Source: Dehalococcoidia bacterium (GTDB taxonomy: Bacteria; Chloroflexota; Dehalococcoidia; Lucifugimonadales; JAGWBF01). From it: a stretch of 64,000 bases of DNA. Position numbers and translations under genes: made by a program. The notes beneath the pieces are model-generated. The model saw only the letters and a list, made by a program, of their open reading frames with translations. It searched no databases and was not told where the DNA came from. Location of the stretch: the NCBI GenBank assembly GCA_965247055.1, contig CBDFGE010000006.1, positions 688,114-752,113 of the forward strand, read 5' to 3'. Positions 9,520-64,000 of this stretch are shown piece after piece. Within the stretch, counting starts at the first letter, position 1; every line of letters starts with the position of its first letter.

Positions 9520-9529
9520 CCATCAGGGG

Positions 9530-12364: not shown

Positions 12365-12504
12365 GGGCCGCGGTCTGGGGACTCCTTGACACGCCCATAG
12401 ATAGCAACCTACAATCCGGCCAACTAGCATTGGAGGAGTGGGGACGGGCCGCGTTGGCCAGCGGTGGGAGCATCGACGACCCGCGAAGGGACAGGAGGAT
12501 TACC

Positions 12505-13689: not shown

Positions 13690-13716
13690 AAACTTGCCCC
13701 CGGCGTGCCGGGCAAA

Positions 13717-13752
13717 GGTAGAGGCGACCCTGCTGGGTCGCCTCTACCTTTT
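13717..13752. terminator. bidirectional rho-independent terminator
   Basis: Perfect 14-bp stem GGTAGAGGCGACCC-tgct-GGGTCGCCTCTACC followed by TTTT, with AAA upstream. It sits between convergent genes. Confidence 0.8.
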
Positions 13753-13790
13753 GAGCAGCTATACGCCGGGACCCAGGCCCCGGTCTCGGT

Positions 13791-44347: not shown

Positions 44348-44495
44348 CCCACATCCCCGGATGTTCTATCGCTGCTGTCCTGCTCCATAACGTTGAGAAA
44401 GGTTCATAATACTGGGGCTGGAATCCCATGGACTGAGGTGACACCGTTTCGAGGCGGCTCACCGGTACTTCCTAGAGGGGGTCCCTCCACCCCCC

Positions 44496-44939
44496 TTACG
44501 TCCCCACCACCTGGACCACCACCTCCCTGGGACGCGGGCGGTCTAGCTCTATCATGAAGACGCTCTGCCACTTGCCCAGCTGCACCGCACCCTCGACGAT
44601 GGGTATGGTCTCGCTGGTGCCCAACAAGAGGTGCTGACAATGGGCGTGGCCGTTGGGGCACTCGTCCTCCGTCATGTTCACGGTCCGGATGGTGAAATCG
44701 TTGTGCCTGTAGTTCCCATTCCGAGGGGACATGCGTTCCAGAAACTGCTCCATGTCCTGGAGGAGAAGGGGCTCGTTCTCATTTATCTTTATGGCTGCGG
44801 TGGTATGCCTGGAGTAGACCACCACGGAGCCATGCCCCACGTTAGCTTCCGCCACGCACTGACGGACCAGCTGGGTGAGGTCTACGAATTCCGGAGCTCT
44901 CGTGCTCTCTACCCTGAGACGGTAGGCCCGGACTTTCAT
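44496..44939 (-). CDS. YjbQ/UPF0047 family protein (secondary thiamine-phosphate synthase)
   Basis: …VVVYSRHTTAAIKINENE…GHAHCQHLLLGTSETIPI…GKWQSVF is the family pattern. ATG at 44939. Confidence 0.75.
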   Translation of the reverse strand: MKVRAYRLRVESTRAPEFVDLTQLVRQCVAEANVGHGSVVVYSRHTTAAIKINENEPLLLQDMEQFLERMSPRNGNYRHNDFTIRTVNMTEDECPNGHAHCQHLLLGTSETIPIVEGAVQLGKWQSVFMIELDRPRPREVVVQVVGT

Positions 44940-45027
44940 AGTGCCCACCTGCTCGCCCAGTTTCTCCGGGCTCTCGGGCCGACCTCTGGCAAGGCCTGGT
45001 GGCCCATCGCGCCGCCAGGTCGGGGTC

Positions 45028-47166
45028 TTACCCACTGTTTCCGTGTTCGCCTCTGGCACAACTCGGTCGTCCATGGTTCACATCCTTTCCGCTGGGCAAA
45101 AGACCCAACCTACGCTCGGGTCCCGGCGAACTCCGGCCATCCGGCCGCCAGGCCCCAAGGTAGGGCCGGCCTTCTAGCCTCAGGTATCTTCCCAGTGCCA
45201 TCGGGGGCCAGCAGTTGCGGTACATATGGTAGTTGATCATGAAGCCGGCGGACATCTCCAGCCCCTGGTAGCCACGCTCACCTGGCTCAGGGAACCGCTT
45301 CAGCCTCTTGCCGGCCCCGTAACCCGGGAATCCAGTCCCGGTGAAGTAAGGTTCGTCCCAGGAGCCGTCCTCCCGCTGGGTCTCCACCAGGTAGCGTATC
45401 CCCTTCTCGGTCGCCGGATTGAGCGCCTCCCCGGCCGATAATAAGGCCATGAGCGCCCAAGCGGTCTGGGAAGGGGTGCTGGGGCCCCTCCCCATGAGGG
45501 AGGGGTCGACATATGAGCCGCAGCCTTCGCCCCAGCCTCCATCCCCGTTCTGGTGGTCCAGGAGCCACTCCACCGCCCTTCGTACCCAGGGCGCGTGCAT
45601 GTCCTCCCCGATCGCCTCCAGGGCAGGGAGGACAGCCCCAGTGCCGTAGATGTAGTTGACCCCCCACCGGCCGAACCAGGGGCCTTCGGCCTCTTGCTCC
45701 CGCCTCAGATACTCGTAGGCACGCTGCACGGGAGGGGACTGCTTCGTGTATCCCAGCTTACCCAGCATCTCCACCACGTGGGCGGTGACGTCGGCGCTGG
45801 GCGGGTCCAACGCCTCGCCGAAGTCGCTGAAGGGAATCCTGGTGAGAAGGCTTCTGGTGTTGTCCTTGTCAAAGGCCCCCCAGCCACCATCCTTGCTCTG
45901 CATACTCAGGACCCAATGGACCCCCCTGCCAATGGCTTCGGCTCTTGCTTCGTCGTCAAGACCGTCCAGGCGGGCCCCGTTCAGGGCCATGACGACCTCA
46001 GCCACGTCGTCGATGTCCGGATAGATGTCGTTGTGGAACTCGAAGGCCCAACCCCCCGGGGGTGTCCTCTTATTCTTCACCTGCCAGTCTCCCCCGGTCA
46101 GCACCTGCTCCTTCACCAGCCAGCGGGTAGCCCTTTGAATGGCGGGATGGTCGGGCCGCATCCCCGAGTCCAGAAGCCCTATCTGCACAAGGCCGGTGTC
46201 CCATACGGGAGAGAGGCAAGCCTGGACCCGCCAGGTGTCTCCCTCTTCGACGGCGAACTCCTCGAACCCCTGCATGCCCTTCCTCATCACCGGGTGTTCC
46301 ATGGAGTAGCCCAAGTGTTTCAGGGCGATCAGGGAGTATACCCAGGGAGGCTGTATTCCCCCCCAGGAGCCGTCGGCCTCCTGATGGGATTCTATCCACT
46401 GGACGGCCTTCCGGATAGCCCTTTTGCGCCATGGTTTAACCGGCATCCTCTGGTACATACGAAGGAGCCTGTCTGCCACGTGAAAGACCCGGCTCCATCC
46501 CAGGAGGCCTTCCGGTGCCGGGAGGCAGTAGTCGGTCTGCTCCCTGGGGGCCGGGTAGAGCTCGTCTATGCACGCCCACCGTGGCACGGGACGCACCGGA
46601 CGCTCGGTCAGTATTATCAGCATGGGGACGATGGTGGCCCTGGCCCAGCTGGAGAACTCATAGATGCTCAGTGGGGACCAGTTGGGCAGGAGCATCAGCT
46701 CCGGCGGCATGATCGGGGTGCCCCGCCACTCCCACTGGCCGAACAGTGATAGCCAGATCTTCGTAAAGACCCGGGACCTGGGCACGCCTCCCCGGGACAG
46801 GATGAAGTCCCGCGCCTTGACCATCTCGGCCCGGTCGGCGGGAACACCCCCCAGCTTGAGGGCGAAGTAGCACTCCACTGACGTGCTCACGTCCCCCGGA
46901 GCGCCGAAGTACTGGCCCCAGGAGCTATCGTCCCGCTGCTGGCTGAGTATATAGTTGGTGAGCTTGCGCCAGCGCGCCTCATCCACCACGCCGAGGAAGT
47001 AGGTCAGAAGCAAGTACTCCGCCTCCATCGTGGCGTTGGACTCCATCTCGCCCCACCAGTAGCCCTCGGGGTACTGGATGGACAGCAGGTAGTCGTGGGA
47101 GCGCCGGATGGTGTGCTCCACGTCCTCCAGGAAGCTCGACCTTACGCTGCTACGGACTTCGGCCAC
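45028..47166 (-). CDS. shc: squalene-hopene cyclase
   Basis: DIDDVAEV (DxDD) motif, repeated QW motifs (…GGWGE…, …DGSW…), GWAFEF, and a terpene cyclase N/C layout. Confidence 0.95.
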   Translation of the reverse strand: MAEVRSSVRSSFLEDVEHTIRRSHDYLLSIQYPEGYWWGEMESNATMEAEYLLLTYFLGVVDEARWRKLTNYILSQQRDDSSWGQYFGAPGDVSTSVECYFALKLGGVPADRAEMVKARDFILSRGGVPRSRVFTKIWLSLFGQWEWRGTPIMPPELMLLPNWSPLSIYEFSSWARATIVPMLIILTERPVRPVPRWACIDELYPAPREQTDYCLPAPEGLLGWSRVFHVADRLLRMYQRMPVKPWRKRAIRKAVQWIESHQEADGSWGGIQPPWVYSLIALKHLGYSMEHPVMRKGMQGFEEFAVEEGDTWRVQACLSPVWDTGLVQIGLLDSGMRPDHPAIQRATRWLVKEQVLTGGDWQVKNKRTPPGGWAFEFHNDIYPDIDDVAEVVMALNGARLDGLDDEARAEAIGRGVHWVLSMQSKDGGWGAFDKDNTRSLLTRIPFSDFGEALDPPSADVTAHVVEMLGKLGYTKQSPPVQRAYEYLRREQEAEGPWFGRWGVNYIYGTGAVLPALEAIGEDMHAPWVRRAVEWLLDHQNGDGGWGEGCGSYVDPSLMGRGPSTPSQTAWALMALLSAGEALNPATEKGIRYLVETQREDGSWDEPYFTGTGFPGYGAGKRLKRFPEPGERGYQGLEMSAGFMINYHMYRNCWPPMALGRYLRLEGRPYLGAWRPDGRSSPGPERRLGLLPSGKDVNHGRPSCARGEHGNSG

Positions 47167-47184
47167 GCTACTCCCTTGCCAACC

Positions 47185-48195
47185 TCACGAAGCTCTCCTT
47201 CCTCGTCCAACCCCCACGTACCCGTGGTCGCGAAACCAGCTCACCGCCTTTTCGAACGCCCGCTCCACCGGGCTCTGGGGGAGCCCCAACTCCCTCACAG
47301 CTTTCGCACAGCTCACGTACATGGGCTTTCGGGACACCTTGAGCCCCTCCAACGGTATCGTGGGTTCCCTTCCGAGGACCCTTCCTTCGACAAACTGGTC
47401 CACGTAACCTGCACCGATTGCCAGCCAGGTCGGCAGCCTCAACCACGGCGCCTTCTTAGCGGACACCCGCTCGAGAAGCTTGAGTACCTGACTCAGGCTC
47501 ATGTTCATGTTGCCGAGGAGATACCGCTCCCCGGGCCTGCCCTTTTCCAGGGCCAGCACATGCCCCACGGCCACGTCCTCCACGTCCACCACATTCATTC
47601 CCGTATTGACATAGGCTGGGAGGCGCCCCCGAATAAAGTCCAGCACCAGGCGGCCTGTGGGTGTGGGCTTCACGTCCCACGGTCCCACGGGGGCCGTGGG
47701 GTTGACCACCACCACTGGAAGACCCTTCTGCACCATGGCTAGCGCCTCCCCCTCCGCCATGTACTTGGAGGCCTTGTAGTGACCCACAAGCTCCCTGGCC
47801 GAGGGCGTTGTCTCCTCGGTGCCCACGCCTCCTTTGGGTATGCCCACCGTAGAGACCGTGCTAGTATACACGCAACCGGCCACTCCTGCCCTGAGGGCCT
47901 CCTCCAGGACGATCCGGGTCCCAGTTACATTTGTCTCGTACATCAGGCGGGGGTCCGGCGTCCAGAACCGGTACAGGGCCGCGCAGTGGAACACCGCCCG
48001 GCAGCCCTTTACCGCCCTGGCGACCGACTCCCCATCCCTCACGTCTCCTGGGACCATCTCGATGCCCGTGCCTTGTAGCGTTAAGGTGCTACTCCCCGGC
48101 CTCACGAGGGCCACCACTTCGTAGCCCCTGCCGTGAAGCGTGCGGGCAACGTTCCCGCCGATAAACCCTGTGGCTCCAGTGACAAGTACCTTCAT
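47185..48195 (-). CDS. hpnA: hopanoid-associated sugar epimerase
   Basis: MKVLVTGATGFIGGNVARTL...ALVRPGS...GDVRD...AVFHCAALYRFWTPDP...YKASKYMAE closely follows the HpnA pattern. Adjacent to shc. Confidence 0.8.
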   Translation of the reverse strand: MKVLVTGATGFIGGNVARTLHGRGYEVVALVRPGSSTLTLQGTGIEMVPGDVRDGESVARAVKGCRAVFHCAALYRFWTPDPRLMYETNVTGTRIVLEEALRAGVAGCVYTSTVSTVGIPKGGVGTEETTPSARELVGHYKASKYMAEGEALAMVQKGLPVVVVNPTAPVGPWDVKPTPTGRLVLDFIRGRLPAYVNTGMNVVDVEDVAVGHVLALEKGRPGERYLLGNMNMSLSQVLKLLERVSAKKAPWLRLPTWLAIGAGYVDQFVEGRVLGREPTIPLEGLKVSRKPMYVSCAKAVRELGLPQSPVERAFEKAVSWFRDHGYVGVGRGRRAS

Positions 48196-48325
48196 CCATA
48201 GACATCCTGAGATATCCTGCCGCGTCTGATTGACGGTCCCCTTTCCTGGCAGAGGGCCGCCCCCGGGCAGCGCCTCTTTCTCTCCGAGACTCCGCCCACC
48301 GCGGAGCCTGGGGTGAAAATCAGTC

Positions 48326-49078
48326 CTAGCCATCTCCGGACCGGCTCCCCGCTGTCTTCCTCACACGTAGAAAGGCCGTGCAGAAAGCGGCCAGATTCGC
48401 CCGCGCCAGTTTCGCCTGCCCGGACAACCGAACCACTCCAGGGATACTCCACGGCCGGACAAGCCCGTTGGCCGCGACATGCAAGGCCTGCATCAGAGGT
48501 CTCTTGTCGCCAATCCCCGCCAGATAGGGCGGCAAACCCTGACGGGCCGTATCCAGGACGGCCCGCACGCTGAGGAAAGGTATCCGATGTCGGGCAACCT
48601 CTGCCCCCACCCAGAAGTCCTCCATGTTGGCCACCCAGGCCGAGGTAGCTTCCGCCAGCCGCTTCTTCTCCCCGGCCTCCGAGACCATCCGGTCTACTGT
48701 TAGGGAGTCGGCGACGAAGTGGCGTGGCGCCCCGGGACCCCTGATCGCCTCTTGGGCCTGCCTCAGCAGGTAGGAATCGGACGCAACGACGCCGTCCCAG
48801 CCCGTCGCAAAGAGCCTCGGGCAGAGGACCAGGTCCCCGGTGTCAAGTCCTTCCACCAGGGCTGTGGCGAAACCGAGGGACAATACGCAGTCCGGCCTCG
48901 CGGAGCCGTCCAACATGTCGGCTGTACCCGCCGACGCCTTTTTCGCGCCAACTCCGGTGACACACACCAGAGGGCGCACTTCGCCAGTGCGCGCTTTACC
49001 GGTATCGCTCCCGTTCAGCCAGGCTCGGCCCATGAGAAACGACACCTCTCGCTCCATCGATGCCACTATGGCAATCAC
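48326..49078 (-). CDS. hpnG: hopanoid-associated phosphorylase/nucleosidase
   Basis: PNP/MTAN-fold pattern (IAIVASMEREV…TGVGAKKA…NMEDF…). Sits between hpnH and hpnA. Confidence 0.7.
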   Translation of the reverse strand: MIAIVASMEREVSFLMGRAWLNGSDTGKARTGEVRPLVCVTGVGAKKASAGTADMLDGSARPDCVLSLGFATALVEGLDTGDLVLCPRLFATGWDGVVASDSYLLRQAQEAIRGPGAPRHFVADSLTVDRMVSEAGEKKRLAEATSAWVANMEDFWVGAEVARHRIPFLSVRAVLDTARQGLPPYLAGIGDKRPLMQALHVAANGLVRPWSIPGVVRLSGQAKLARANLAAFCTAFLRVRKTAGSRSGDG

Positions 49079-49088
49079 ACGCCCCGTC

Positions 49089-50129
49089 CTAGCTCGCCGT
49101 GATCCCGCCCTTACTTATTGCCCCCGCCTTGATCAAGGTGACCCAGTCTCTCGGACTGGAGACAGCCTTGAATATTGTGGCCGACTCGAAACCGCAGTGC
49201 ATCATACAGCCGGAGCAGCGAGGGTCCTTTCCCACGCCATACTTTTCCCAAAGGGACTCCTCGAAGAGCTCATCCACACTATCCACGTGTTCGTCGGCCA
49301 GGGGATAGCAAGGTTTCCTCCAGCCCATGACCGTGTAGGTAGGGTTGGACCATGCCGTGCACTGATACTCCCGTTTCCCCCTTAGGAAATCCAGGTAGAT
49401 GGGGTTGTTGTACAGCTTCATTCCCTTGGTCTTGCTCTTGTCCAGGATCTCGGTGAAGGCCTGATGTGACTCCTTGCGGGTGAGGAACATGTCGTGGTCT
49501 GGGGCGTGGGTGTAGTCGAAGCCCGGCGAGACCATACATCCCTCCACCCCCATCTCCGTCATGGTGCGGAACAGGCCGTGGATGTCGTCCACGTCGCAGC
49601 CGCGAAAGATGGTGGTGTTGGTGCAGACCCGGTACCCCTGATCCAGCGCCATCTGGATGGACGTCATGGCCTTCTGGAAGACACCTTTTCTGGCCACCGC
49701 CTCGTCGTGCTTTTCCTCCATGCCATCCATGTGGACCACCCAGGAGAGGTATTTGGAAGGGGGTACCTTCTTCATAACCCGCTCCAGCAGGATTCCGTTG
49801 GTACAGCAGTAGACGAAGTACTTACGCCGGACCAGCTCATTTATTATATGGTCTATCTTGGGGTGTATCGTGGGCTCCCCTCCGGCGATGGAGACGATCG
49901 GAGCACTGGACCGCTCCACCGCCGAGACAGCCTCCTCGACGGGCATCATCTTGTCCATCACCGCTTTGTACTCGTGGATGCGGCCACAGCCCACACAGGC
50001 CAGGTTGCACATCTCCAGGGGTTCCAGCATGGTCACCAGCGGGAACCGTTTCCTGCCTCTGAGACGCTTCTTCAACATGTAAAATGCCAGCCTGATGGAA
50101 AGCTCCATAGGCCTCTTGGCTCTCTTCAT
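49089..50129 (-). CDS. hpnH: adenosyl-hopene transferase (radical SAM)
   Basis: FPLVTMLEPLEMCNLACVGCGRI CxxxCxxC cluster plus the conserved C-terminal region (…RKPCYPL…CSGCMMHCGFE). Confidence 0.9.
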   Translation of the reverse strand: MKRAKRPMELSIRLAFYMLKKRLRGRKRFPLVTMLEPLEMCNLACVGCGRIHEYKAVMDKMMPVEEAVSAVERSSAPIVSIAGGEPTIHPKIDHIINELVRRKYFVYCCTNGILLERVMKKVPPSKYLSWVVHMDGMEEKHDEAVARKGVFQKAMTSIQMALDQGYRVCTNTTIFRGCDVDDIHGLFRTMTEMGVEGCMVSPGFDYTHAPDHDMFLTRKESHQAFTEILDKSKTKGMKLYNNPIYLDFLRGKREYQCTAWSNPTYTVMGWRKPCYPLADEHVDSVDELFEESLWEKYGVGKDPRCSGCMMHCGFESATIFKAVSSPRDWVTLIKAGAISKGGITAS

Positions 50130-50199
50130 ACGTTCCTTCGTTCCTTTCCCTGCGGCTCGTAATGTGAATATGGCCGCTCATTTCCGCTTCCCATGCGCC

Positions 50200-51306
50200 T
50201 CAGCGCTGCCGTGTGGTAAGGAACTCGACCAGCTCCTCTATCTCCCGGCGTGCCCAAGCAGCCAGGGGCACGCCTCCTAGCTGTGCCAGGGCCATCTCCC
50301 CCTTCTCTCGGGTCACGGCGTGGGCATACTCAGCCACGTTGAGCTCCTCCAGCACCTCCAAAACCCTCTCGACGTCCTGATCCTCCGGCTCGTCCTTGCT
50401 ATACGCCTCCACCAGCGCACGGCGGGCCGAACCCTTTGCCGACTCAAGGGCATAGACCACGGGAAAGGACTTCTTCCTCCTCCGTATGTCGTTGCCAACG
50501 GCCTTCCCAGTCGTAGCCTCATCTCCCCAGATTCCCAGCACGTCGTCTCGTATCTGGAAGGCCAGGCCCAACAACCCGCCAGCATGAGCGAACGCCTTTA
50601 TGTCATCCTCCCGGTCGGAGGCGACCAGGGCTCCCAGCTCCATACCGCACCGGAGCAGGGCGCCCGTCTTATAAGAGACCATCCCGAGATAGTCCTGGAG
50701 AGTTATGTCCAGAGTCCTTTCAAAGGCCAGGTCCATGCACTGTCCAGCGGTCATCTCAAGGTAGCCCTCCGTGATCAGGCACGACGCCCTGAGCACCTTT
50801 TCTTGGGACACCCCCCGGCGCCCGAGATCCAGGGCGGATACGTCGGCAAGGCACCGCATCGCGTTCCCGGCGACGAGGGCCTGAGGCGGTCCCCACAGGG
50901 CCCAAACGGTGGGCTGATGGCGGCGTTCCAGGTCCTGGTCCTGGATATCGTCGTGAATCAGGGAGAAGTTATGGATGAACTCCAGGGCTGCTGCAGCCGG
51001 CAGCGCCGTGGTCCACTGCTCACTCAGGGCGTCGCAGGCGAACAGGCACAGGGTGGGACGGAGCGCTTTACCCTGGGAAACCGGGGCCGCCCGGATGCCT
51101 CCAGACTCATCCGCCCAACCCATGTGATACTGGAGCATATGATAAAGGCCGGCCGGGAGATCGCCCCACCCAAGCCCCCTCTCGGGCCCAGGTATGGCCG
51201 CCCGCAACTCCCCTTCTATGCCCTCCCTGTACCGGGCGAACATGGCGGGAAGCGCTGGCCCCGAAGGGTATCTCGAGCCGATACGAATCGTATTGGCGCT
51301 GCCCAT
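50200..51306 (-). CDS. polyprenyl diphosphate synthase family protein
   Basis: FSLIHDDIQD (DDxxD) and FQIRDDVLG second Asp-rich motif. Confidence 0.85.
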   Translation of the reverse strand: MGSANTIRIGSRYPSGPALPAMFARYREGIEGELRAAIPGPERGLGWGDLPAGLYHMLQYHMGWADESGGIRAAPVSQGKALRPTLCLFACDALSEQWTTALPAAAALEFIHNFSLIHDDIQDQDLERRHQPTVWALWGPPQALVAGNAMRCLADVSALDLGRRGVSQEKVLRASCLITEGYLEMTAGQCMDLAFERTLDITLQDYLGMVSYKTGALLRCGMELGALVASDREDDIKAFAHAGGLLGLAFQIRDDVLGIWGDEATTGKAVGNDIRRRKKSFPVVYALESAKGSARRALVEAYSKDEPEDQDVERVLEVLEELNVAEYAHAVTREKGEMALAQLGGVPLAAWARREIEELVEFLTTRQR

Positions 51307-51551: not shown

Positions 51552-51581
51552 TTGACTTAGTCCTACTCACGATGATATAGT
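51552..51581 (+). promoter_or_regulatory. candidate sigma-70 promoter (TTGACT, 18 nt spacer, TGaTATAGT extended -10)
   Basis: TTGACT at 51552-51557 and TATAGT at 51576-51581 preceded by TGA, about 30-70 nt upstream of the possible starts of the 610-aa ORF. Confidence 0.35.
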
Positions 51582-51612: not shown

Positions 51613-53445
51613 ATGGAAGTCTCTCGTAAAAGTGAAAGGAGAGGCGGAATGAGCAGGATCCTTCTCAACAGGATCCTTCTCAAGAGGTACGCACCGTTCT
51701 ACCTTGCGTTACTGGTAACGGGAGTCGTGATGGCGCTTCTGTTCCTGCGCCCGGACTCGGCTCTAGGCTTGACCGTAGAAGTTAGCGCAGTGAAGAAGTT
51801 CCCCGACTTCCCTGCTCCGGCGGGGTTCAAGCTCGGCGATCCGGTGATTATCAACGCCGACGTGGGGCTGCAGGGCGACTTCGAGCCGATCAAGAAGGTG
51901 ACACTGACAGTGGCGCAGGACACCGGGGACGCCGGGTTCACAGGGTTCACGGTGAACCTCCCCTTCCCGCAGGCTCCCAACTACGCTCCCATCGCCTCGG
52001 CGGACATTAGTGGGAGCTTGCCCGTAGTGGGCGGGCAGACACAGGGAAAGCTGTTTGTGGACGTAAGGCTGGTGGAGACTACGCCCGACCCCTTCGGCTA
52101 CGGCTACGGTTACCGGGGTAAGCTGGGAGACGGGTTTATCAAGTACACCATTACCTACGTACCGCCCAAAATCCGGGGGACATATACGGCCACTTTCCGG
52201 CTGTTATTCGTACAGGACTCCCAGGAGACGCTGCTCCACGACCCCGTATCCACCAAGTTCTCCATCCTCGGTCCCTTCGTGGCAGGAGACCTCGTGGCCT
52301 TACCCACGATATATCCTCGCAGCGCCGAGGGGGCCCTCTCCAGGGACATGGTGGTACTGAGGGCCATGGTACCGGCAAGCAAGTTCGGTAGCGTAGTATC
52401 GATCACGGCGGACCCCGGCCTTCTGAACCCGAACAAGGACACCATGGCGTCGGTCAGCAGCTTCCATCCGGCGCTGCTCGAGAAGTGGGATATCGATACC
52501 CGGGCAGACTGGCAGCTGGCGCTCCCGTTCAAGGTCATCCCCCAGCAGGACCCCCTGACCGGTACCTTCTTCGTTTCCCTCAGGGCCATCGACACGGCCG
52601 GACAGGTGCTCGAGTTGGGCGGCGGCGCGGGCGCCCCGGTCAAGGTCCTGGACAAGCGGCAGACCTTCAACGTGTACCTCATGCCCAATTTGAACTTCCT
52701 CTCCACGCCTTTGCAGTGCGCCACTGGGGACTGCGCCGCCAATTCTGAGCACAAGATAAGTAATCTCCTCGCTCAGGCCGCTACAAGAGGCGCGCCTGGG
52801 ATAGCTACCCTGGCGGACGCAGTGGAGATCATGTGGTACTACTGCCCCGACGGTGGCGCCTGCCCCTCCGGCGGGGCGACCCCCAAGTTCGTCTCCTACG
52901 CCCCGGGCCGGGCACAGCAGGAGTTTACGGCCGTCGGTACGGGCAAGGGCTACATCGTCAAGGCCAAAGACAGTGCGTTCAAGACGCTCACCTTCCCGGG
53001 AGGGACCCAGTTCCCTGTAGACCTTGAGGTGCCGGTGCCCATCAAACTGACCTTCAGCGGTGCTGCTGTGGCACTGCCTCCTCCCTTTACCCCGGCTGGC
53101 CAGGAGGTAAAGGAGATATGGAACCTGGTGGGGTTGCACTCCGAGCGTGACTCCACGGTCGGGAACCTGGTCAATAACGTCGACCTGGAAGCGGAGCGGC
53201 TGTGGATACAGTTGCTGGGCTTCGAGAACTCCCTCGATATCTTGCTGGATGCCAATGGTCTTATGGTGCGCGACCGGGCGACGGGTAAGCCGGTGGTGAC
53301 GCTGGTGCAGAACGTGCTGCAAAATCTATCTTTCAACCGAAACCAGTCGATCTCGGCCGGCGATGGCTTCTGGCTCGAGATGTGCGCGGACGTAGGCAGA
53401 CCTCAGTGTAACGGAATCATCGGGCCGGTGCTGGAGCCGAGGTAG
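51613..53445 (+). CDS. hypothetical secreted/anchored protein (610 aa; alternative start at 51649)
   Basis: N-terminal basic stretch plus a hydrophobic helix (FYLALLVTGVVMALLFL). No family recognised. Lies directly upstream of the giant ORF on the same strand. Confidence 0.6.
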   Translation: MEVSRKSERRGGMSRILLNRILLKRYAPFYLALLVTGVVMALLFLRPDSALGLTVEVSAVKKFPDFPAPAGFKLGDPVIINADVGLQGDFEPIKKVTLTVAQDTGDAGFTGFTVNLPFPQAPNYAPIASADISGSLPVVGGQTQGKLFVDVRLVETTPDPFGYGYGYRGKLGDGFIKYTITYVPPKIRGTYTATFRLLFVQDSQETLLHDPVSTKFSILGPFVAGDLVALPTIYPRSAEGALSRDMVVLRAMVPASKFGSVVSITADPGLLNPNKDTMASVSSFHPALLEKWDIDTRADWQLALPFKVIPQQDPLTGTFFVSLRAIDTAGQVLELGGGAGAPVKVLDKRQTFNVYLMPNLNFLSTPLQCATGDCAANSEHKISNLLAQAATRGAPGIATLADAVEIMWYYCPDGGACPSGGATPKFVSYAPGRAQQEFTAVGTGKGYIVKAKDSAFKTLTFPGGTQFPVDLEVPVPIKLTFSGAAVALPPPFTPAGQEVKEIWNLVGLHSERDSTVGNLVNNVDLEAERLWIQLLGFENSLDILLDANGLMVRDRATGKPVVTLVQNVLQNLSFNRNQSISAGDGFWLEMCADVGRPQCNGIIGPVLEPR

Positions 53446-53674
53446 TTTATAGGCCGGTGATGGAGGTGGCAGGTCCGAGGGAGTGTCCATTACATGAGGA
53501 AGGGACATAAGGACGAGCATCTGACTTCAAAGAAGTCGTTAAGAAGAGTTGTACTAACTAAAGGAGAAAGGCCCTCCTTGGGCGACTTAGGTGGTAGAAC
53601 CGGGAGCCAGAGGGGGCTTCGGTTTGTAAGTTATTGAAAGCGGATCGGGTAGTCGAGCACCCTGAGGTCGGTGA

Positions 53675-56600
53675 GCCTTCCGGCGCATAAAGGCAGTAAC
53701 TATAATAGGGGGAGGAGTTGCTCTCAGCTCTCTCCTCCTCGCCATCCTGATCCAGGCTGTCCTGGCAGCCGGCGCACCCCCACCGCTACCCCATGAATTT
53801 GCGGGTAACGTGTCGGTTGGGAACGCACCCGCTGGGGACGGCCTTGAGATCAGGGTAAAGGCCTTTGATGTCCTCCTGCAGCAACTGGTGCCTCTGGAGC
53901 TTACCCCCGCCTCGGTGGACGCCCAGGGCCGCCATCTCACCCAGAACGGCACTTACGGAGACGTGCAGGTCTTCCAGGTGCCGCAGGACGACCCGGATAC
54001 CCCCGCCATCCGTGAAGGCGCGAAACCCCTGGAGCGCCTATCATTTTTCATAGTCCCCGACCCGAGCACCGGCATAGAGATCGAAGCCCAGATGATCCCG
54101 CGAGGCCAGTCGGCCATCCCTCCATCGGAGGGCATTCCCTTTGAACCGGGGTTCACCCTTCTCGACCTGTCCGTTTTCGATCTCACCCCTCCGGTGCCCC
54201 CGGTGCTGGTGGCACCCGTCGATGGAGCGGTGCTGGCCGGCCTGACAGTAGACTTCGAGTGGCAGGTGTCCGTCAGTCCAGACGTCGCCAGTTACCGGCT
54301 CCAGGTCGCCAGCGGCGACGACGTGGACTTCTCCACGCCCATCGTGAACAAGGTGATCCCCGACCCGTCGGCCACCGGCGATCGCATCACGTTCACCTCT
54401 GCCGGGCAGTTCAGGTGGCGGGTGGGCGCCACCGATGTGGTCGGCAACGAGACCGTTCTGGCGGACCTGGTGGTCCGGACCTTCACCGTCGTGCCCGTCG
54501 TCCAGGTCACCCCTCCCGGCCTTGTCGCGCCACCGAGGTTCACCAACGCCGCGACTCCCCTTTTCCAGTGGACGGCCTCCCAGGGCACAGGGATAACCTA
54601 CAGACTTCAGGTGGTGAGAGCCGGCGACCAGTTCGCCGAGCCCTTCATTATTAATATCGGTGACATACCCCAGACCAGCTTCACGTCCCCCGTGACCTTG
54701 GCCGACGATACCTATAGCTGGCGGGTTATCGCCTCCGACTCCTTTAATAACTCCGCAACTTCACAGACCGGGACATTCTCCGTCGATACGTTACCTCCCA
54801 CGATCCCCGGCACCCTCCGTGAGGTGACCCCGGATGAGGACGCGTCGGCACGCACCTTCAGTTGGGACCGCTCCCAGGACGACACCCCACCTCTTCCCGG
54901 TACCGCCGCCGACGCGTCGGGCGTCGATTTCTACAGACTGGACATAGCGGGCCCGGAGAACCTGGTCCTCACCGCAGACGACAGCGATGTCCTCTGCCCC
55001 GCCGGAGTGTGTACCATCACCACCCCCGACTTGATAACGGGGAGCTATGCCATCGAGGTGAACGCGGTAGACCGGGCGACCAATGAAAGCGCCTTCACCG
55101 ATCCCCTGACATTCCGGGCAGGGCCGCGGACCGCGCCCCAGGACCTTCAGCAGCTCCAGCCCCTGTTCATAAACGAGCCCGTCTTCCTGTGGAGACGGCC
55201 CTTCCTGCTGCCGGCTCCACAGCTCACCACCGGGGGCATAGTCGACTATGAGGTGGCCATCACCGGAGACCCGGTGCTGGCGCCGGGCTTCATCATTCCC
55301 TTTACGTCCTTCCAGAACACGGACTTGTTCATCGTCAGGTGCTTCGACTCGAACGACGTGCCCATTGGCACGGCTGGCCAGTGCGCCGGGTTGGCGGGCA
55401 CCGGCGACAAGATCCAGCTGACTCTACTGGGTCCTGTGCCCGATGGGACCCATCTCATAGCGGTCAGGGCGGTGGACCAGGGTGGTCTCCGAACGCCGGC
55501 ATCGTTCATCCAATTTATAGTAAAGAAGATCCTGGACCTCAGCCTGCTGCCAGACGCCGACAAAGAGTTCGTTGGTCCGGGTACCATATTTAACGTGACC
55601 ATAAAGGTGGACCCCACAGAGGGCGGCCAGGCCACCGGCCAGCCGGTCTCCGCGGTGGACGCCTTCCTGGACTTCGCCCCCAGCGACTTCGAGGTCCTCA
55701 GCATAGCGTCGGGGACCCGGCTTGAGGAGGTGCTCACGGGGGACTTCGATAACACCAGGGGTACGGTCGACTACAGTGCCGCCACCCTGGGGGTCCCCGC
55801 CAACGTGCCCTTCGTCCTCGCTGTGGTGCGATTCAGGGCGAAGGAGCCCCAGGTCCTCGAGAGGCCCGGTGACATATCCTTTAGCCAGGCCCACCCCAGG
55901 AGGAGCGAGGCCGGCTACAAGGGCGCCCCGCTTTTGGACAGGGCCCTCGACACTGTCGTCACCATCCTGAAGCCGACCGTCGACATCGTGCTCCAGAACC
56001 AGGAGTTCAGCAGCCAGGAGTTCCAGGGCTTCGCCAGAAATCAGACCTTCGATGTGACCGTACGCGCAAGGACTCAGGGCCAGAAGGTCTCGGCAGTGGA
56101 CGCGCTGCTGAACTTCGATCCAGAGGCCCTGCAGGTCGTAGGACCCATCCTTCCCGGAGACGGCAGGCTAGAGCAGGTAATCGTAAGCAGGGTGGATGCG
56201 GCAAGAGGCACAATAGAGTTCAGCGCCGTGACCCAGGGGACCCCGGTAACTCAGGACTTCGACGTGGCCGTGGTGAAGTTCCAGGCGCTGCAAGCGACCA
56301 GGGCCCTGAGCGTGGGCTTCCGCAAGGACCACCCCACAGACTCCGACGCGGCGTACCAGGGGGTCTCGGTCTTGCGGGACCTTGTCGGGTTCCCAGTAGA
56401 GCTGGCCCTGGAGCTGAAGCTCACCTCCTTCGATCTTCCCAACCTTGATGCGGAAGTGGTCATCAGGGCGCGTCCCAACGGCAGCAGGGTGTCGGCGGTG
56501 GACGCCTTCCTGGACGTGGACCCGACGGACATCGGGCTTGAGAGTATCGCTCACGGTAGGAGACTGGAACAGGTACTGACCGGGGACCTCGACAGGGCCG

Positions 56601-59600
56601 CAGGCCACGTAGGCATTGGAGCCGCCACCTTCAATCCCACCGTGGGTGAGTTTGATCTCGCCACCGTCAAAGCGGTAATAACCGCCGCGAGCCTGGACGC
56701 CCTGGCACCGATGCAAGTACTGTTCCACTGCTACGATGCTACTGGGAATCCCATCCCCGGGTGCGCCCTGTTCCCCAGGAGCACCGAGGTAGCCCTCAAC
56801 GGCGAGTCTGTGCTGGACGTGCTGACTCCCCTGGCTACCCTTAGGCTACAACCACCGGGCGCCGTTGAGAACCTGATCCAGCGGAGCCCCGATAACCAGG
56901 CCAGGCCCACCTTCGACTGGGACCCACCTCGCGTGCGGCCCGCTGCCGGAATCAGGACCTTCAACATCGCCATCACCGGCAGTGGCGACGACCCGGGCCC
57001 AACAGTTGTGGCCGGTGACTTCGCCGAGGTCGGCACTGTCCAGTGCTTCGACGCGAACGAGCTGGAGTTGCCATCCTGCTTTGATGCGTCGGGCAGTCTC
57101 GACATAGACAACGTTGCCTTCTTCCGGATGGCGTTGAAGACTGCGCTGGGCGACGGAAGGTATACTATCTCCGTTTCGCCTGTCGACAACCTGGGCCAGC
57201 AGGGAGAGTTGAAGGGGTCCAAGCTTTTCTCCATCGACACCCAGCCACCCACGGTACCGGTGACCACGGGCCCGTTGGGGGCGGACTTGGCCTTCACCAG
57301 GGACACCACCCCGCTCCTGGAGTGGGACCCATCCACGGATAACCTGACCCAGACCAATCAGATAGAGTACGACGTACACTTGGCCCTCACCAAGGCCGCC
57401 CTAGACAGTGAAGCCGACCGCCGGGAGACAACCACCGGAGACCTGTTCTGGGAGGTGGTGGAGTACGAGCTGGAGCTGAACAAGGTCTACTGGTGGCGCG
57501 TAAGGGGCCTGGACAAGGCTGGCCGGATAACGGCCGCCCTCCTGGTGGCGACCGCGGACCAGAGGTCCACCCTGGCGGTGGAAAGGGTACCGGGACGGGG
57601 CAACGCCAGCGAGTTCTCCGAGCCCATCAGGTTCATTATAGATACCCTGAGTCCCACGCCCCCACAAGAGCTGAGCAGCACGTCCATCGGTGGGGCAATA
57701 ACCCCCGACCGGACCCCCACCTTCCAGTGGAAGCGCTCCACCGATCCCGGGTTCGTGGCCCCGGGGGACGAGCGGAACCGGGGCTCCGGAGTGGACCGGT
57801 ACACGGTGGAAATCCGGAGGACGGGAGATGGTACTCCTGCGGTGGTCGTCGGCGTGGTACTGGACGGCACCTGCAGCGCCGTGACGAACCTCTGCACCTT
57901 TGATGTGTCGGGAGCCGGTGTCCTCCTCGAAGACGACCAGTACACCGTTCTTGTACAGGCCATAGACAACGTGGGCAACAGCGGCGTCGCCGCCGTACTC
58001 GCTCTCACAGTCGACTCCCTGGGACCCCTCCCGCCAATCGTGTCTCTGGTTAGCATTGGCACCGGGGAGAATCCGGAGGCCGTATTCAGGTGGACCCGCT
58101 CGCAGGACCAGATTCCGGGGGGCCCTGGAAGGGCGGGTGACGAGTCGGGCGTGGACTTCTACAACGTGGTTGTAAAGCAGGTCCCCGCTGGAACCGCAGT
58201 CGCCGAGGCAACGGTGTTCGATGCTCAGTGCGGTATCTTCTGTGGGTTCACCACGCCCACCCTAACTGACGGCGACTACACCGTGGAGGTCAACGCTGTT
58301 GACCGCGCGACCAATTCCGGCGACTTCACCGATCCCTTGGGATTCTTCGCCGGCAGGGGGGACGTACCACGCAACCTGGTGCAGCTACCGCCTCTGTTCA
58401 ACGACAGGCCGACTTTCAGTTGGAGGATCCCCAAGGATCCGCCAGTGGCCGGAGTGGGCTCATACCAGGTAGCCACCGGTGAGGCTGGCACCCCACCCTT
58501 TGCCGACGCGGAGTTTCGAGATTTCAAGGAGCTGGGCGCGGTCGCCTGCGCAGATGCCACGGGCGACGCCGTCGACTGCACAACCCGGATAAACAATGCC
58601 GATACGATCCAGCTGACCTTTGCGGATGCCCATCCCGACGGCAGGCGGGCGATACAGGTACGGTTCGTGACCATAGTCGGCCAGCCCGGAGACAGCGCGA
58701 CCCTGGAGTACGACGTGGACACCACGGCGCCCGGTCCACCCACCGGCCTGCTGGTGAGGCCATCGGGGACCCTCACCGACGGGACCATTGTGGTGACGAC
58801 CGACAGGACGCCGGAGCTGGCCTGGACCTCCCCCGACACCGGCGACGAGGTCTCTGGGTTGGACCATTACACTGTTACCATCTCGGGAGACAGGGAGGGC
58901 TACGACCAGACCTTCGAGGTGGGGGCGGACCAGACCGTGTTCACCGTTCCCAACACCGTTGAGACCGTGCTGGACCCCGACGACCAGTACACGGCCCAGG
59001 TCAGGGCAGTGGACGTGGCGGGCAACACCAGCACCGCCGACAGGCTAGACTTCGTCGTGGACCTGGACCCGCCGACACAACCCACGGACCTGGCTAAGGA
59101 CCCTGCCAGTCTGGACGACGACCGCACACCCACCTTCAACTGGCAGACATCCCAGGACCTGGGCCTGGGCGTGGATCTCTACAGGCTGCACATCGAGTCT
59201 GTGAGCCTGATCGACGTCATCCCTCCGCCGGCACCGGTACCGGTGACGCCGCGGGTCATCGCCGCCGCCGGCAAAGGTTTCGTCAAGAGCGGCGACGCCG
59301 TCCGGTTCCGCTGGAGCCGGGTCACGGACAAAACCAGTGTGTTCTACAGACTGGAGGTAGCCACGGGGGCCCAGCCCGCCACCGGGTCCTTCACGTCAAA
59401 CCTGATCTTCGCGGCGGACGTCCCCCATGCGCCGGTGGCCTACCTGGATGACCGGGTGATCCAGTTCGTATTCGCCGGCTCCCTACCCACCGGGGTCGAT
59501 ATCAACTGGCACGTCCGGGCCATCGACGACGGCCGCAACGCTGGTCCCTTCTCCGCGGTGAACGTCTTCCAGGTGGTCAGCGATGCCAACGGGCCTCCAG

Positions 59601-62600
59601 TGCCACAGCTCTTGCAGCCCACTCAGGGTGTCACGGGGGACGACGCCACGCCCACCTTCCTGTGGACTCCCACGCCCGATCCCGAGGGACACGGCTCCTT
59701 CTACCATCTCCAGGTGACGTCGGGAGACATCCAGAACGCGCCCTACGCCATTAACCTGAACGGCGTGCGCCTCACCGAGAACACCTTCACTCCCGTAAAG
59801 CTCCTGGGGCCCTCCATCACCTACGTCTGGCGTGTCGAGTCGGTGGACGTCCTGGGCAATACCAATGGGTTCTCAGCCACGGGCGACTTCGGGGTCCTCC
59901 CTGATGCCAGCGCCCCCGCCAATCCGACGCTGGTGTTCCCAGGGGAAGGGGCCACGATTGGAGACAGCACACCCAGCTTCCGGTGGAAGCCGGTCACAGA
60001 CGACAGCGGCGTCACCTACGGAATAGAGATCTCGATAGCCTCGGGCGACCATCCGGCGACGGGCGCCTTCGCCGAGACGGTCTTCACGGCCGATGGAATC
60101 GCCGACGTTCTGGTGGCCAGAAACGGCGAGCAGGTGATCGAGTTTATCCTTCCTGACGCCAGCGCCCTGGCGGACGGCGACTACAGGTGGCACGCCGACG
60201 CGGTAGACGGCCGGGGCAACCGCAACTTCTTTAACGGGCCTTTCTTCACATTCACCGTAGGCCCAGATGCAGAGCCTCCGGCAGTGCCCACGCTGCTCCT
60301 CCCGACCTCGGGAGGCCAGACCACCGATTCCACCCCCACCTTTACGTGGGAAAGGGTTGAAGATGACAGCGGCGTGGCCTACCAGTTGCAGGTCTCCACG
60401 GCGTCCGGCGATGACTTCGACGCCTCCATAGTGCGCAACATACAGGCCTTCGACGCCAGCTTCACCCTCGAGGGGCCCCTGGACCAGGGTGGAACCGCGC
60501 CGAGGCAGTTCTGGTGGTGGGTAAGGGCCCAGGACGGAGCGGGCAACAACGGAGCGTACTCGGAGCAGTGGAGCTTCACGCTGGACGCCGTACCACCGGC
60601 CGCGCCGTCCGAGCTCACGATCGACCCCGACTCCCTCGATCCGGTGGTGGTGACCGGGACGTACACCCCAACCTTCCTGTGGGCCTTCGACAGCAGCGTG
60701 GTGCTGTACGAGCTGTTCCTGGACGGGGTGCTTGTGGGCACTAGCGCCAACATCCAGGTTGAGGCGGGGGTGGCCAGGTTCACGCCGGCCCAGCCCATCG
60801 CCTTTGGCCTGCACCACGACTTCCGTGTGAGGGCGTCCGACGGCTTCAGCAACCAGAGTCTGAGCGCGCTGTTCTTCAGCGACAACGTCAGGGCAGGCAA
60901 CCCCATCGCCACCTTCACGGTTCCCGACGCTGACTTCCTGCCGCTGGGCACCCACAGGATAGACGTGAGGGCGGCCGACAGGCTGGCGACAGAGCTGGGT
61001 AACCTGCCGGACAGGCTGGGCCACCGCAGCGACCCGGCGGTGCTGCCCTTCAACGTGACGGAGCTGGTCGTCTCCCTCGAACCTCCGGACCAGTCAATAC
61101 AGGTGGGCCAGCCGGCCACACTGAGGCTGCGGGTGGACCCGAAGGGCCTGGAGGTGGGAAGCCTGGACGTGAGGCTCACCTTCGACGGTCAGATTCTAAG
61201 TATCGTGCCCGGCGATATCGCCGCCAGCGGTGACGACGTCACCATAACAGATGTCTCGACGGGCGAAGGCACCGCGGACTTTGCCGTCAACTTTGCCACG
61301 CGGACCGAGCGGGATGACCTGGCCATCCTCACCTTCTCCACAACCTCCACGGGAACGGCGACGGTCCGGCTGGCCACCGACGACAGGCGCACCCAGTCCA
61401 GGTCCCCAGAGGGAGATCCGATACCCGCACTTCTGAGGAGTGCTACCATCACCGTATTTCAGCCCTCTGGCGGCCCCGGTGCGCCCCCACCTGCCGCTCC
61501 TGTAGCCGACGCCGGCGAAGACAAGGAGGTCAACGAAGGCGATACGGTGACCCTGGAAGGAAGCAGCGTGCCGCCGAACGTCATCTTCGGATGGAGGCAG
61601 ACCGGTGGCCCAGTCAATCTGACGCTGGATGGCGCCAACACCTCGACCGCCACCTTCGTCGCCCTAGATGACGGTGTGTACACCTTCGAGCTCTCGGCAA
61701 CGGGGGCCGGCTCCGACAGCGACGAAGTCGTGGTAACGGTCAACAACCTCAACCCCGTGGCAGAGGCCGGTAACGACCGGACGGTGGACGTGCTGGTGGA
61801 GGTGAGCCTCGAACCGGCGGCCACCTTCACCGACATCGGTACCCTGGATACCCACACCGCCACCATAGACTGGGGCGACGAGACGACCGATGCCGGTGTC
61901 GTGACCGAGGCCAACGGTGTCGGCAGCGTGGCCGCCTCCCATATCTACGAGGCCCCTGGCATCTTCACTGTTACCGTATCAGTCCAGGACGACGACGGAG
62001 GTATCGGGACCGCCGAGCTGACTCTCACTGTGACTGGCAACGTGCCGCCCGTCGCCGTCATCACCGGCAACGAGACCGCCAACGAGGGCGACGTCGTCGA
62101 TCTCGACGGCAGCGGCTCCTTCGACCCCGGGTCTCCCGAGACCATCGTCCTGTTCGAGTGGGACTTCGGCGACGGCGAGACCGCCGAAGGTCCCATCCAG
62201 GCCCACATCTACGAGGACAACGGCGAATACACGGTCACGCTGACGCTGACCGACGACGAGGCCGCCACCGGCGACGGCACCTTCGTGGTGTCGGTGGCCA
62301 ACGTGGCGCCGACGGTGTTGCCGGGAACCAGCCAGACGGGCGAGGAGGGTGATTCCATCCGGGTCACCGCCTCCTTCGCCGATGTCAGTGAAGTGGATAC
62401 CCATACCGCGTCCATCAACTGGGGCGACGGCAGCGCACCCACCGTGGTCGACCCCGCCATCACCCCTCTGGCGGTCCTGCACACGTACGAGGACGACGGC
62501 ACGTTCCTGGTGACCATAACGGTTACCGATGACGACGGGGGCACCGGCTCGGGCGACCTGAGCGCCGCCGTGACCAACCTGCCGCCCAAGGTGGACCCGG

Positions 62601-64000
62601 GTCCCGATCAGGCCAGCCTGGCGGGTAGTCCCATTACTATCGCTTCCACCTTCGAGGACCCCGGCCGCGACGATGACCACGTGGCCGTCATCGCCTGGGG
62701 AGACAATACACCGGACACTGTCATCGACCCCGCCGAAAGCCCGCTCTCGGTCCCCCACACGTACGCTGAGGCAGGGACCTTCACCGTAGAGGTGACCGTC
62801 ACCGACGACGACGAAGGGTCCGCCAGAGCCACCCTACAGGCACTCGTGGTGGCCGAAGCAGAGCTACCCGAGGGACTGGAGGCCAGCGGGATGACTCTGG
62901 TGTTGCGCGGCTTGCGCCTCCCTGAGGGTGTCGCCGCGACGCCGGATGCCGGCGAACCCGTAGGGCTACAAGTCAATGTCCGTAATACGACCGGCCAGCA
63001 GATCACCGATACGGTAATATTGTTCGCGGACAGGGGGGACGGCACCAGGCAACAGATTGCCTTCCCCGTGGACCTGCTGGGTGGAGACGATGTCACGCTA
63101 GTGCTGCCCAGCCGGAGGCCGGCGCGGGATCCTATCGTGCGGGCGGAGCCGGGGACCTACCTGATGCAGATGGGAAACCAGCTGGGCAGAATCATTATCC
63201 GGGGTATCGTCATCAGGCTGTTCACCGACGTGGTGCCCAGGCTGGCTGGTCCTGGCAACATCGTCGAAATCAGCACGGTGGCGGTCAACGAGGGCGGCAT
63301 CAGAGCGGACTTCAACGTAAACACCCAGGTGGATGACAACCCGGCCGTCGGCCCTGTCACCCTGGCCCCGGGACGCGAAGCGGACGTGGTCCGGTTCGTG
63401 CAGATACCGGACCAGCCGCCGGCGACGGGCATCACGAGCCCGGGACGCCACGACGTGCGGGTTATCGCCACAAAGGACACCGAGGAGCTGGACGAGGAGA
63501 AGGACTTCTTCGAAGTGGCAAGGGCCGCCCTAGATACACCCATACCAGTTGCCTACTCGTTCAACCCGGCTACCACCAGCGCGACGGATGCCGAAGGGAA
63601 CACATTGGTCCTGGTTCTGACGGGGGACATCAGGATCGGCGAGGGGTCCATCTCGCTATCTATACCGGTGCTGGCGCGGGCAGGAGTACAGGTATCCAGG
63701 TTCGTGGACAGGACCAGCGGCATCAGGATCATCGGTAAAGAGGTAACGTTGCCGGTGAGGGACCCAGTCACGAACGAGATTGTCCTCACGCTGAAGGGCA
63801 GACTGAATCAGAACCTGGCCGGCACGGCGGAGGGTACACAGGCCAGCGGCACATTCGAGTCCTTGCACCTGGAGACCGAAGAGAAGAGGGAGGATCTGAG
63901 CTCCGACGATCCCCTGGTCGGGAACCTCGGCGTCTCCCTGCTCGCCGGTCTGGACCGGCTGCCTGAGGACGTTAACCTGTCCCTCACCATCTCGAAGCAG
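53675..64000 (+). CDS. giant modular secreted surface protein, partial (more than 3,440 codons, runs off the window end; start codon unresolved)
   Basis: I translated every codon in the phase where codon starts are 2 mod 3, from 53675 to 64000, and found no stop. There is a signal-peptide-like N-terminus, repeated PxFxW...SGVxxY...VxAxDxxGN modules, and cohesin-, PKD- and CARDB-like blocks. The ORF is not in the supplied track. Confidence 0.85.
55528..56720 (+). other. three tandem cohesin-like modules within the giant ORF
   Basis: Each module has the form F(N/D)VT(I/V)... , VSAVDA(F/L)L(D/N)FDP..L.V , G.RLE(E/Q)VL , G(T/H)(V/I).(Y/F/I)(S/G)A , F(V/D)LA(V/T)V(R/K). Confidence 0.5.
61070..61465 (+). 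other. fourth cohesin-like module
   Basis: IQVGQPATLRLRVDP...LDVRLTFDGQILSIVPGD...GTADFAVNFA...LAILTFSTTSTGTATV. Confidence 0.45.
61495..62850 (+). other. array of about five PKD-like modules
   Basis: ADAGEDKEVNEGDTVTLEGS...; DTHTATIDWGDE...HIYEAPGIFTVTVSVQDDDGG; FEWDFGDGE...HIYEDNGEYTVTLTLTDD; THTASINWGDG...HTYEDDGTFLVTITVTDDDGG; IAWGDN...HTYAEAGTFTVEVTVTDDDEG. Confidence 0.65.
62870..63520 (+). other. two CARDB-like modules
   Basis: VGLQVNVRNTTGQQITDTVILFADRGDG...LLGGDDVTLVL...PGTYLM and NIVEISTVAVNEGGIRADFNVNTQVDD...LAPGREADVVRF...GRHDVRVIA. Confidence 0.35.

Follow-up and report, generated by a model that had tools for sequence, protein, structure and literature searches.

The last 10.3 kb of the stretch of DNA analysed here (64,000 nucleotides of a Dehalococcoidia bacterium, GenBank assembly GCA_965247055.1, contig CBDFGE010000006.1, positions 688,114 to 752,113; hereafter the window) are a real gene fragment, which encodes about 82% of a protein of about 4,200 residues. 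The product is probably a type I membrane-anchored fibrillar surface protein of adhesin-like kind, and possibly a cohesin scaffold as well; it belongs to an uncultured bacterium. As proposed in a first-pass annotation of the window, the plus-strand frame whose codons start at positions 2 mod 3 stays open to the very end: it comprises 3,442 codons (53675-64000), contains no stop at all and follows immediately on a TGA (53672-53674); in this part, each of the five remaining frames contains between 26 and 164 stops. Residue numbers of the giant protein, given in amino acids (aa), count from the codon at 53675 throughout.

Concerning codon usage, the GC contents of the giant frame at the three codon positions (GC1/2/3 of 0.65/0.48/0.80) are like those of the neighbouring genes, and its relative synonymous codon usage correlates with that of the pooled neighbours at 0.96, as compared to 0.60 and 0.11 for the shifted frames. 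That the frame might be non-coding, a possibility already raised in the first-pass annotation, is at odds with this codon usage (r = 0.96) and with the Pfam domains that exceed their thresholds in it, both of which point to coding. An even more radical reading, according to which there is no gene here and the frame is either open by chance in GC-rich DNA or the product of an assembly chimera, has practically no probability left and is already refuted. A high GC content makes random open reading frames (ORFs) longer, and antisense ORFs of 100-380 aa do overlap the region, but the chance of an open frame of this kind is about e^-90 (our own estimate, at about 0.027 stops per random codon at this composition), several Pfam domains above threshold lie in the same frame, the translation is collinear with an intact orthologue of 4,218 aa (P0025), and an independent assembly of a sister strain (L001) is 99.3% identical. 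The many antisense ORFs are expected opposite a GC3-rich gene. The giant ORF itself is absent from the ORF track because the ORF lister omits ORFs that run off an end, as the first-pass annotation had presumed and as the lister's own statement agrees; in this way, the dropping of open-ended ORFs from tracks has hidden the largest gene of the window.

Domain organization

The features recognised in the gene, all on the plus strand, are the following:

53678-53680, plus strand: conserved position of the start codon, TTC in the window and TTG in the sister strain L001 (10001-10003 there)
53678-53767, plus strand: predicted signal peptide (aa 2-31) with RRIK as n-region, a stretch of about 20 hydrophobic residues and the conserved motif VLA
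53774-54208, plus strand: N-terminal domain at the distal end, aa 34-178, carrying a PHxFxGxV motif; a candidate for the binding tip
54209-55543, plus strand: Ig-like modules 1-4 (Big_13), aa 179-623, about 110 aa each (module hidden Markov model (HMM), E 1e-21 to 1e-32)
55544-56866, plus strand: cohesin-like modules 1-3, aa 629-1062 (Pfam Cohesin and internal homology)
56867-60622, plus strand: Ig-like modules 5-14 (Big_13), aa 1065-2316, plus a partial one at aa 1809-1845 (module HMM)
60623-61084, plus strand: degenerate Ig-like module or modules, about aa 2317-2470 (weak module HMM match over about aa 2320-2452, E=0.002)
61085-61471, plus strand: cohesin-like module 4, aa 2471-2599 (family-built cohesin HMM, E=8e-25)
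61472-62839, plus strand: five PKD-type domains, one K319L-like and four PKD_4, aa 2600-3055 (Pfam)
62915-63538, plus strand: two CARDB-like repeats, aa 3081-3182 and 3184-3288 (orthologue-repeat HMM, E ~1e-18)
63539-64000, plus strand: first half of a conserved domain of about 285 aa, aa 3289-3442, cut by the window end and aligning with aa 3286-3450 of P0025

The signal-peptide-like N-terminus noticed in the first-pass annotation has a Sec-type pattern that can be read from the sequence and is kept in five orthologues; its VLA motif is the likely cleavage site. The domain that follows (aa 34-178) is 41-56% identical across four orthologues, has no Pfam match at E<=1, and its AlphaFold2 (AF2) model is unreliable (pLDDT 47.7).

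Most of the remaining part consists of Ig-like modules. An HMM built from these modules finds 14 full copies, besides the partial copy and the degenerate region, which agrees well with the roughly 15 modules of about 100 aa counted in the first-pass annotation (14 full and one to two partial or degenerate ones). Compared with Pfam Big_13 (PF19077, cut-off 27 bits), the protein as a whole reaches 83.3 bits, with two stretches above threshold; the remaining modules are tied to this family via the internal HMM, and the degenerate region has no Pfam match. A profile of the 14 modules compared with the PDB leads to the BIg domains of SiiE (2yn3/2yn5, E=4.7e-8). The module repeats are ancient and have drifted far apart: no two of them exceed 55% identity as proteins, and Tandem Repeats Finder (TRF) detects no tandem array in 53675-64000. 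All 14 cysteines form seven close pairs, two of which are invariant in the orthologues, such that the conserved Cys pairs of the first-pass annotation can be confirmed. A block of two modules with two Cys pairs (modules 3-4) is present in two copies (aa 384-623 and 1456-1694) and constitutes the most conserved part among the relatives, being kept in P0002-P0009 with invariant cysteines. The composition of the protein is very acidic (469 D+E versus 210 K+R, net charge about -259).

The Ig-like modules are interrupted by other domain types, which the first-pass annotation had described as cohesin-like, PKD-like and CARDB-like, in each case with good reason. Concerning Pfam Cohesin (PF00963, cut-off 24.1 bits), the whole protein reaches 42.6 bits; module 2 passes by itself (35.8 bits), modules 1 and 4 stay below the cut-off (18.4 and 19.6 bits), and module 3 has no Pfam match and is homologous to the other cohesin modules. 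The PKD domains exceed their cut-offs for PKD_4 (166.1 bits, four stretches), PKD (81.4 bits) and K319L-like_PKD (70.7 bits), and in the PDB the region matches PKD domains of the collagenases ColH and ColG with E-values down to 3e-14. The two CARDB-like repeats (aa 3081-3288) have no direct Pfam match at E<=1 and are recognised via the HMM of the orthologue repeats; the C-terminal repeats of the orthologues reach Pfam CARDB (PF07705) in P0025 with 79.4 bits (cut-off 22.7).

The domain at the window end is complete in P0025 (aa 3286-3585), where it is situated between two CARDB blocks, and about 60 representative proteins contain it; in those that were checked, it is followed by CARDB repeats and often, at the C-terminus, by a transmembrane (TM) helix and a basic tail. 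It has no Pfam match. An AF2 model of the whole domain, taken from P0025, is confident (pLDDT 94.6, pTM 0.89), and a Foldseek comparison of its fold with the PDB and BFVD yielded nothing convincing in either collection (best query TM-score 0.21 in the PDB and 0.29 in BFVD).

In view of these assignments, the statement of the first-pass annotation that this is the least conventional coding feature of the window is overstated: the modules belong to the known Big_13 Ig domain of the SiiE type, and in its overall design the protein follows fibrillar surface proteins that are already known.

Orthologues and the missing 3' end

Word-index searches revealed 17 relatives (12 via aa 1-700 and five via aa 700-2600), all of them from ENA assemblies except for two NCBI entries, and an exhaustive search of representatives with aa 3045-3442 revealed 73, P0025 among them. 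The sister strain L001 (ENA ERZ25069129 contig_24) can be compared up to window position 63556; L002 is a locus from a GTDB genome, the metagenome-assembled genome (MAG) of a Dehalococcoidia bacterium. P0025 is collinear with aa 4-3442 of the window protein at 34-35% identity and continues for another 768 aa beyond the window end, with the rest of the domain of about 285 aa, six CARDB repeats, a C-terminal hydrophobic helix and the residues RAKRGG. The C-termini of L002, L003 and L004 are like that of P0025 (TM helix plus basic tail), and the same kind of ending is found in 31 of the 73 representative relatives. The orthologues extend 740-850 residues past the point that is aligned with the window end, and the full protein should thus have about 4,180-4,290 aa in the present genome. 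Judging from them, the missing part would consist of what remains of the domain of about 285 aa, some six CARDB repeats and, at its end, a TM helix plus basic tail. The C-terminus and any anchor therefore lie outside the window, as the first-pass annotation stated, and it is the orthologues that supply CARDB repeats and then a TM anchor.

A 42-mer taken from the window end has no exact match in the genome and metagenome contig collections, a word-index search with aa 3040-3442 found no relatives, and nothing related to aa 3045-3442 is present in the JGI metagenomes. The family is small, unnamed, fast-evolving and lineage-restricted. Some of its members are considerably larger: P0036, with at least 6,580 aa, carries the same region of CARDB repeats and the domain of about 285 aa at its truncated C-terminal end.

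A probable fibrillar surface protein

Signs of an extracellular location are the conserved signal-peptide-like N-terminus, the paired cysteines and the extracellular domain types. To these comes the rate of divergence: among the window and L002-L004, the enzymes encoded nearby mostly share 62-87% identity (a phosphorylase-family gene 41-49%), whereas the giant protein is only 35-41% identical; it thus diverges much faster than its neighbours, which is the usual pattern of an exposed surface protein.

According to the architecture proposed here, the Sec signal peptide would direct export and would probably be cleaved after the VLA motif, and a TM helix would, as suggested by the orthologues, stop transfer at the C-terminus and hold the protein in the cytoplasmic membrane, with a cytoplasmic tail rich in Arg and Lys. 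From there, about 35 serial beta-sandwich domains would extend to the outside and form a very acidic fibre, stapled by disulfides and probably over 100 nm in length. The membrane-proximal stalk would be formed by the CARDB repeats, the 285-aa domain of unknown fold and the PKD domains, and the distal part by the 14-15 Big_13 modules, the four cohesin-like modules and the N-terminal domain, which could contact surfaces, cells or partner proteins.

There are some observations that weigh against this interpretation. In the window copy, a TTC stands in place of the start codon, so that the window allele may not be expressed. No recognised adhesive domain was found in the giant protein, the N-terminal domain being without a Pfam match and its model being unreliable. 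Furthermore, the anchor of the window copy is unseen, as the window ends first and L001 was read only to 63556.

An alternative would be that the giant protein is the principal envelope protein, similar to an S-layer, of a bacterium without a conventional wall, held by a C-terminal TM anchor like many archaeal surface-layer proteins. Among the surface proteins of archaea, it is common to find a C-terminal TM anchor combined with CARDB and PKD repeats, as in this family; the named genome closest to the window is a Dehalococcoidia MAG, and the position of the locus is kept across lineages. However, several lineages carry an insertion sequence (IS) in the gene or lack its 5' part, which is a poor fit with an essential coat protein; a mass of about 430 kDa is far above that of typical S-layer subunits, and no lattice-forming domain was recognised, such that we judge this alternative to be rather improbable.

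Comparison with known systems

The fibrillar surface protein proposed here is an unnamed, lineage-restricted addition to the giant Ig-repeat surface proteins, a class that is well known. With SiiE, the giant non-fimbrial adhesin of Salmonella enterica, it shares the general design of a giant single-chain surface fibre that consists mainly of tandem Ig domains of the Big_13 type. SiiE is secreted by a type I system in a diderm bacterium and is not TM-anchored. Despite the general similarity, there are clear differences: the giant protein has a predicted N-terminal Sec signal, its orthologues possess a C-terminal TM anchor, it mixes cohesin, PKD, CARDB and an unknown domain, and the sequence identity to SiiE is low. 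Giant adhesins of type I secretion systems (SiiE/RTX) have no N-terminal Sec signal and carry a type I secretion signal or RTX repeats at the C-terminus; in the window part and in P0025, Pfam finds no RTX or HemolysinCabind domain.

The fibrillar adhesin-like (FA-like) proteins described by Monzon et al. 2021 (PMC8286594) are extracellular, and a single chain, whose long stalk consists of beta-sandwich domains in tandem, spans the whole fibre; the giant protein, probably extracellular as well, is built in the same way. In the monoderm arrangement given there, the anchor is C-terminal and a non-repeat domain is situated at the distal N-terminus (PMC8286594), and the giant protein shares this arrangement, with the anchor as in the orthologues. 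Its stalk contains 14-16 Ig modules, five PKD domains and two CARDB-like repeats in series, followed by about six more CARDB repeats in the orthologues. It differs from FA-like proteins in two points: no recognised adhesive domain, which is usually situated at the terminus distal to the anchor, was found in it, and the anchor of the orthologues is a plain TM helix instead of LPxTG, SLH or a similar element; only about 20% of the FA-like proteins lacking an anchor possess a TM segment (PMC8286594).

Periscope proteins (PMC9704523) are likewise rod-like surface proteins built from repeats, and Big_13, for which 2yn3 is named as the fold, is among the repeat folds listed for them. They keep near-identical DNA repeats, which lead to length variation (PMC9704523), whereas no TRF array exists in the giant gene and even its closest modules differ at nearly half of their residues (55% identity, see above).

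The cohesin-like modules and the scaffoldin question

Cellulosomal anchoring scaffoldins (e.g., CipC, PDB 1g1k/2vn5) resemble the giant protein in having several cohesins on a cell-bound chain. They differ from it by the carbohydrate-binding module (CBM), the SLH or sortase anchor and the dockerin enzymes, none of which is found in the giant protein or, for the enzymes, in the window; moreover, the cohesins are a minority among its domains, and the similarity is marginal (E ~0.01). It might still be a membrane-anchored, non-cellulosomal scaffoldin, whose cohesins capture dockerin-bearing secreted proteins and thereby organise a surface assembly. This reading refines the explanation as a fibrillar surface protein rather than excluding it, and we hold it to be unlikely.

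Besides the homology to cohesins (module 2 with 35.8 bits, the relative P0015 with 49.6 bits), it draws on the fact that the cohesin family profile matches nothing in the PDB but the scaffoldin cohesins 1g1k and 2vn5. A second protein, P0008, has the same Ig modules and a C-terminal Pfam Dockerin_1 domain (24.1 bits, cut-off 22.9); it was found in two samples, the same ones that yielded the orthologous loci L003 and L004, and in the sample shared with L003 its contig is similar to L003 in GC content and coverage. P0006 ends in a C-terminal EF-hand repeat that appears dockerin-like as judged by eye. Against these stand the absence of any dockerin motif in the 64-kb window (regular-expression search of the six-frame translation), the absence of an enzyme domain (Pfam) and of CBM, SLH or LPxTG both in the window part and in the intact P0025 (Pfam), and the fact that three of the four cohesin modules are under the Pfam threshold. 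Furthermore, the occurrence of P0008 in the same samples as L003 and L004 is not an occurrence in the same genome.

P0008 itself is a protein of 856 aa with a type I dockerin (L005, 10001-12571, and L006, 1954-4524), which is identical in two samples and flanked by transposase genes.

The start codon and the lesions in other lineages

Concerning the beginning of the gene, the first-pass annotation was right in that the frame is open from 53675 onwards; the conserved start, by contrast, is situated at 53678, and its codon is TTC in the window copy. The difference from L001 consists of a single base (C/G at 53680), L002 possesses TTG at the same position, and P0001, P0003, P0017 and P0025 all begin one residue ahead of the motif R(R)IK. 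Since the starts of the orthologues and of L001 and L002 coincide at 53678, this is the true start, and the window copy has no canonical start codon there. Between the upstream stop and the hydrophobic segment of the signal peptide there is no in-frame ATG, GTG or TTG, the first one being a GTG at 53810, past this segment; an in-frame ATA is found at 53687. The TTC may represent an error of the consensus, a very recent loss of the start, or a case of weak initiation at the ATA.

An alternative genetic code or a start farther upstream was considered and rejected, with three stops within the 66 nt before 53675 and only short ORFs in the other frames. The run GGGGGAGGAG (53708-53717), which resembles a Shine-Dalgarno sequence, was rejected as well, as no in-frame start comes after it and it corresponds to Gly-Gly-Gly codons.

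The orthologous loci exhibit further lesions, and P0025 is the only intact gene among the orthologues. In L001, an IS-like insertion of 1,670 bp (12227-13895) lies in cohesin module 1, at window position 55896-55902; it is flanked by a 7-bp duplication (CCAGGAG), has imperfect terminal inverted repeats and contains ORFs of 117 aa (with a weak HTH_32 match) and 365 aa. The giant gene of L001 also carries single-base indels and one insertion of 14 bp. L002 contains an in-frame TAG (12920-12922) and frameshifts. In L003, an rve-type IS is situated at the 5' end (8087-9903), and the copy is without signal peptide and N-terminal domain. The copy of L004 starts inside cohesin module 1 (9791-10001), directly after the polyprenyl synthase gene, such that the first 700 residues are missing. 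The 1-nt indels in these other loci are likely errors of long-read assemblies with 2.5-9x coverage, whereas the insertions and truncations are not errors of this indel kind. Low-coverage long-read assemblies split the same gene into four to eight pieces, and because of this fragmentation the family is effectively unannotated.

These lesions, together with the TTC at a conserved start that no other canonical start before the signal peptide could replace, raise the possibility that the gene is silent or decaying in this strain and that the change from TTG to TTC has made it a very recent pseudogene. The IS-like element of L001, the IS and the absent N-terminal part of L003, the truncated beginning of L004 and the TAG of L002 would all fit such a decay, as would the ratio of nonsynonymous to synonymous differences between the window and L001, which is 33:14 in the giant gene and 16:15 in five neighbouring genes pooled, numbers too small for interpretation. 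On the other hand, any loss must be very recent, given 10.3 kb without stops or frameshifts and an intact codon bias; an error of the consensus at a single base is at least as likely, the ATA at 53687 could initiate weakly, and many of the lesions elsewhere are the probably erroneous 1-nt indels mentioned above. We therefore take decay to be a minority possibility.

A bolder proposal joins the lesions to the cohesin modules: the family would be the backbone of a non-cellulosomal cohesin-dockerin coat onto which proteins like P0008 dock, anchored by the cassette of the 285-aa domain of unseen fold, CARDB repeats and TM helix, and the IS hits, truncations and start loss would reflect strong selection, e.g., by phage, to switch it off. 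This proposal is speculative, and its probability appears to us to be quite low.

Genomic context

The gene order around the giant gene is shared by the window and L001-L004: in all five loci, a hopanoid cluster on the minus strand is followed by the giant gene on the plus strand. In L003 and L004, a His_Phos_1 gene and a TilS gene come after it. The features of the window upstream of the giant gene are the following:

43469-51306, minus strand: complete-looking hopanoid cluster with squalene synthase, squalene-hopene cyclase, HpnA-like epimerase, HpnG-like phosphorylase, HpnH radical SAM protein and polyprenyl synthase
51552-51581, plus strand: sigma-70-like promoter match, TTGACT-18-TATAGT (10/12), a consensus match only
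51613-53445, plus strand: ORF of 610 aa without a Pfam family and with a hydrophobic segment in its N-terminal part; a conserved partner gene in some lineages

The 610-aa ORF is 98% identical in L001 and 52% identical in L002, in the same position, and is absent in L003 and L004. Its product exhibits no similarity to the giant protein and has no exact-sequence record in a look-up; it is probably an exported or membrane protein and probably co-transcribed with the giant gene. A unit of these two genes could possibly be driven from the promoter match at 51552-51581: from there to the giant gene no terminator-like site was detected. A search of Rfam revealed no RNA family in the window, including the leader of 229 nt.

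Some further observations concern the window at large. The hopanoid cluster, syntenic in L001-L004, occurs in a lineage whose closest relative among named genomes is a Dehalococcoidia MAG. A SelA (selenocysteine synthase) gene at 9530-10900 on the minus strand suggests the use of selenocysteine. Two transposase ORFs belong to the Mutator/IS256 family, one at 411-1298 (plus strand), which is truncated and covers only profile positions 117-377, and one at 18093-19304 (minus strand).

Significance

Giant Ig-repeat surface proteins are common, and the present one does not overturn their current understanding. Several oddities are worth following in this family, i.e., the lost start codon, the disruptions that recur among its members, the possible pairing of cohesins and dockerins, here outside cellulosomes, and the confidently modelled 285-aa domain, which the family reveals and which has neither a Pfam family nor a structural match in the PDB or BFVD. 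For a poorly known Dehalococcoidia-like lineage of soil or sediment, the giant protein provides a concrete candidate for the main surface fibre.

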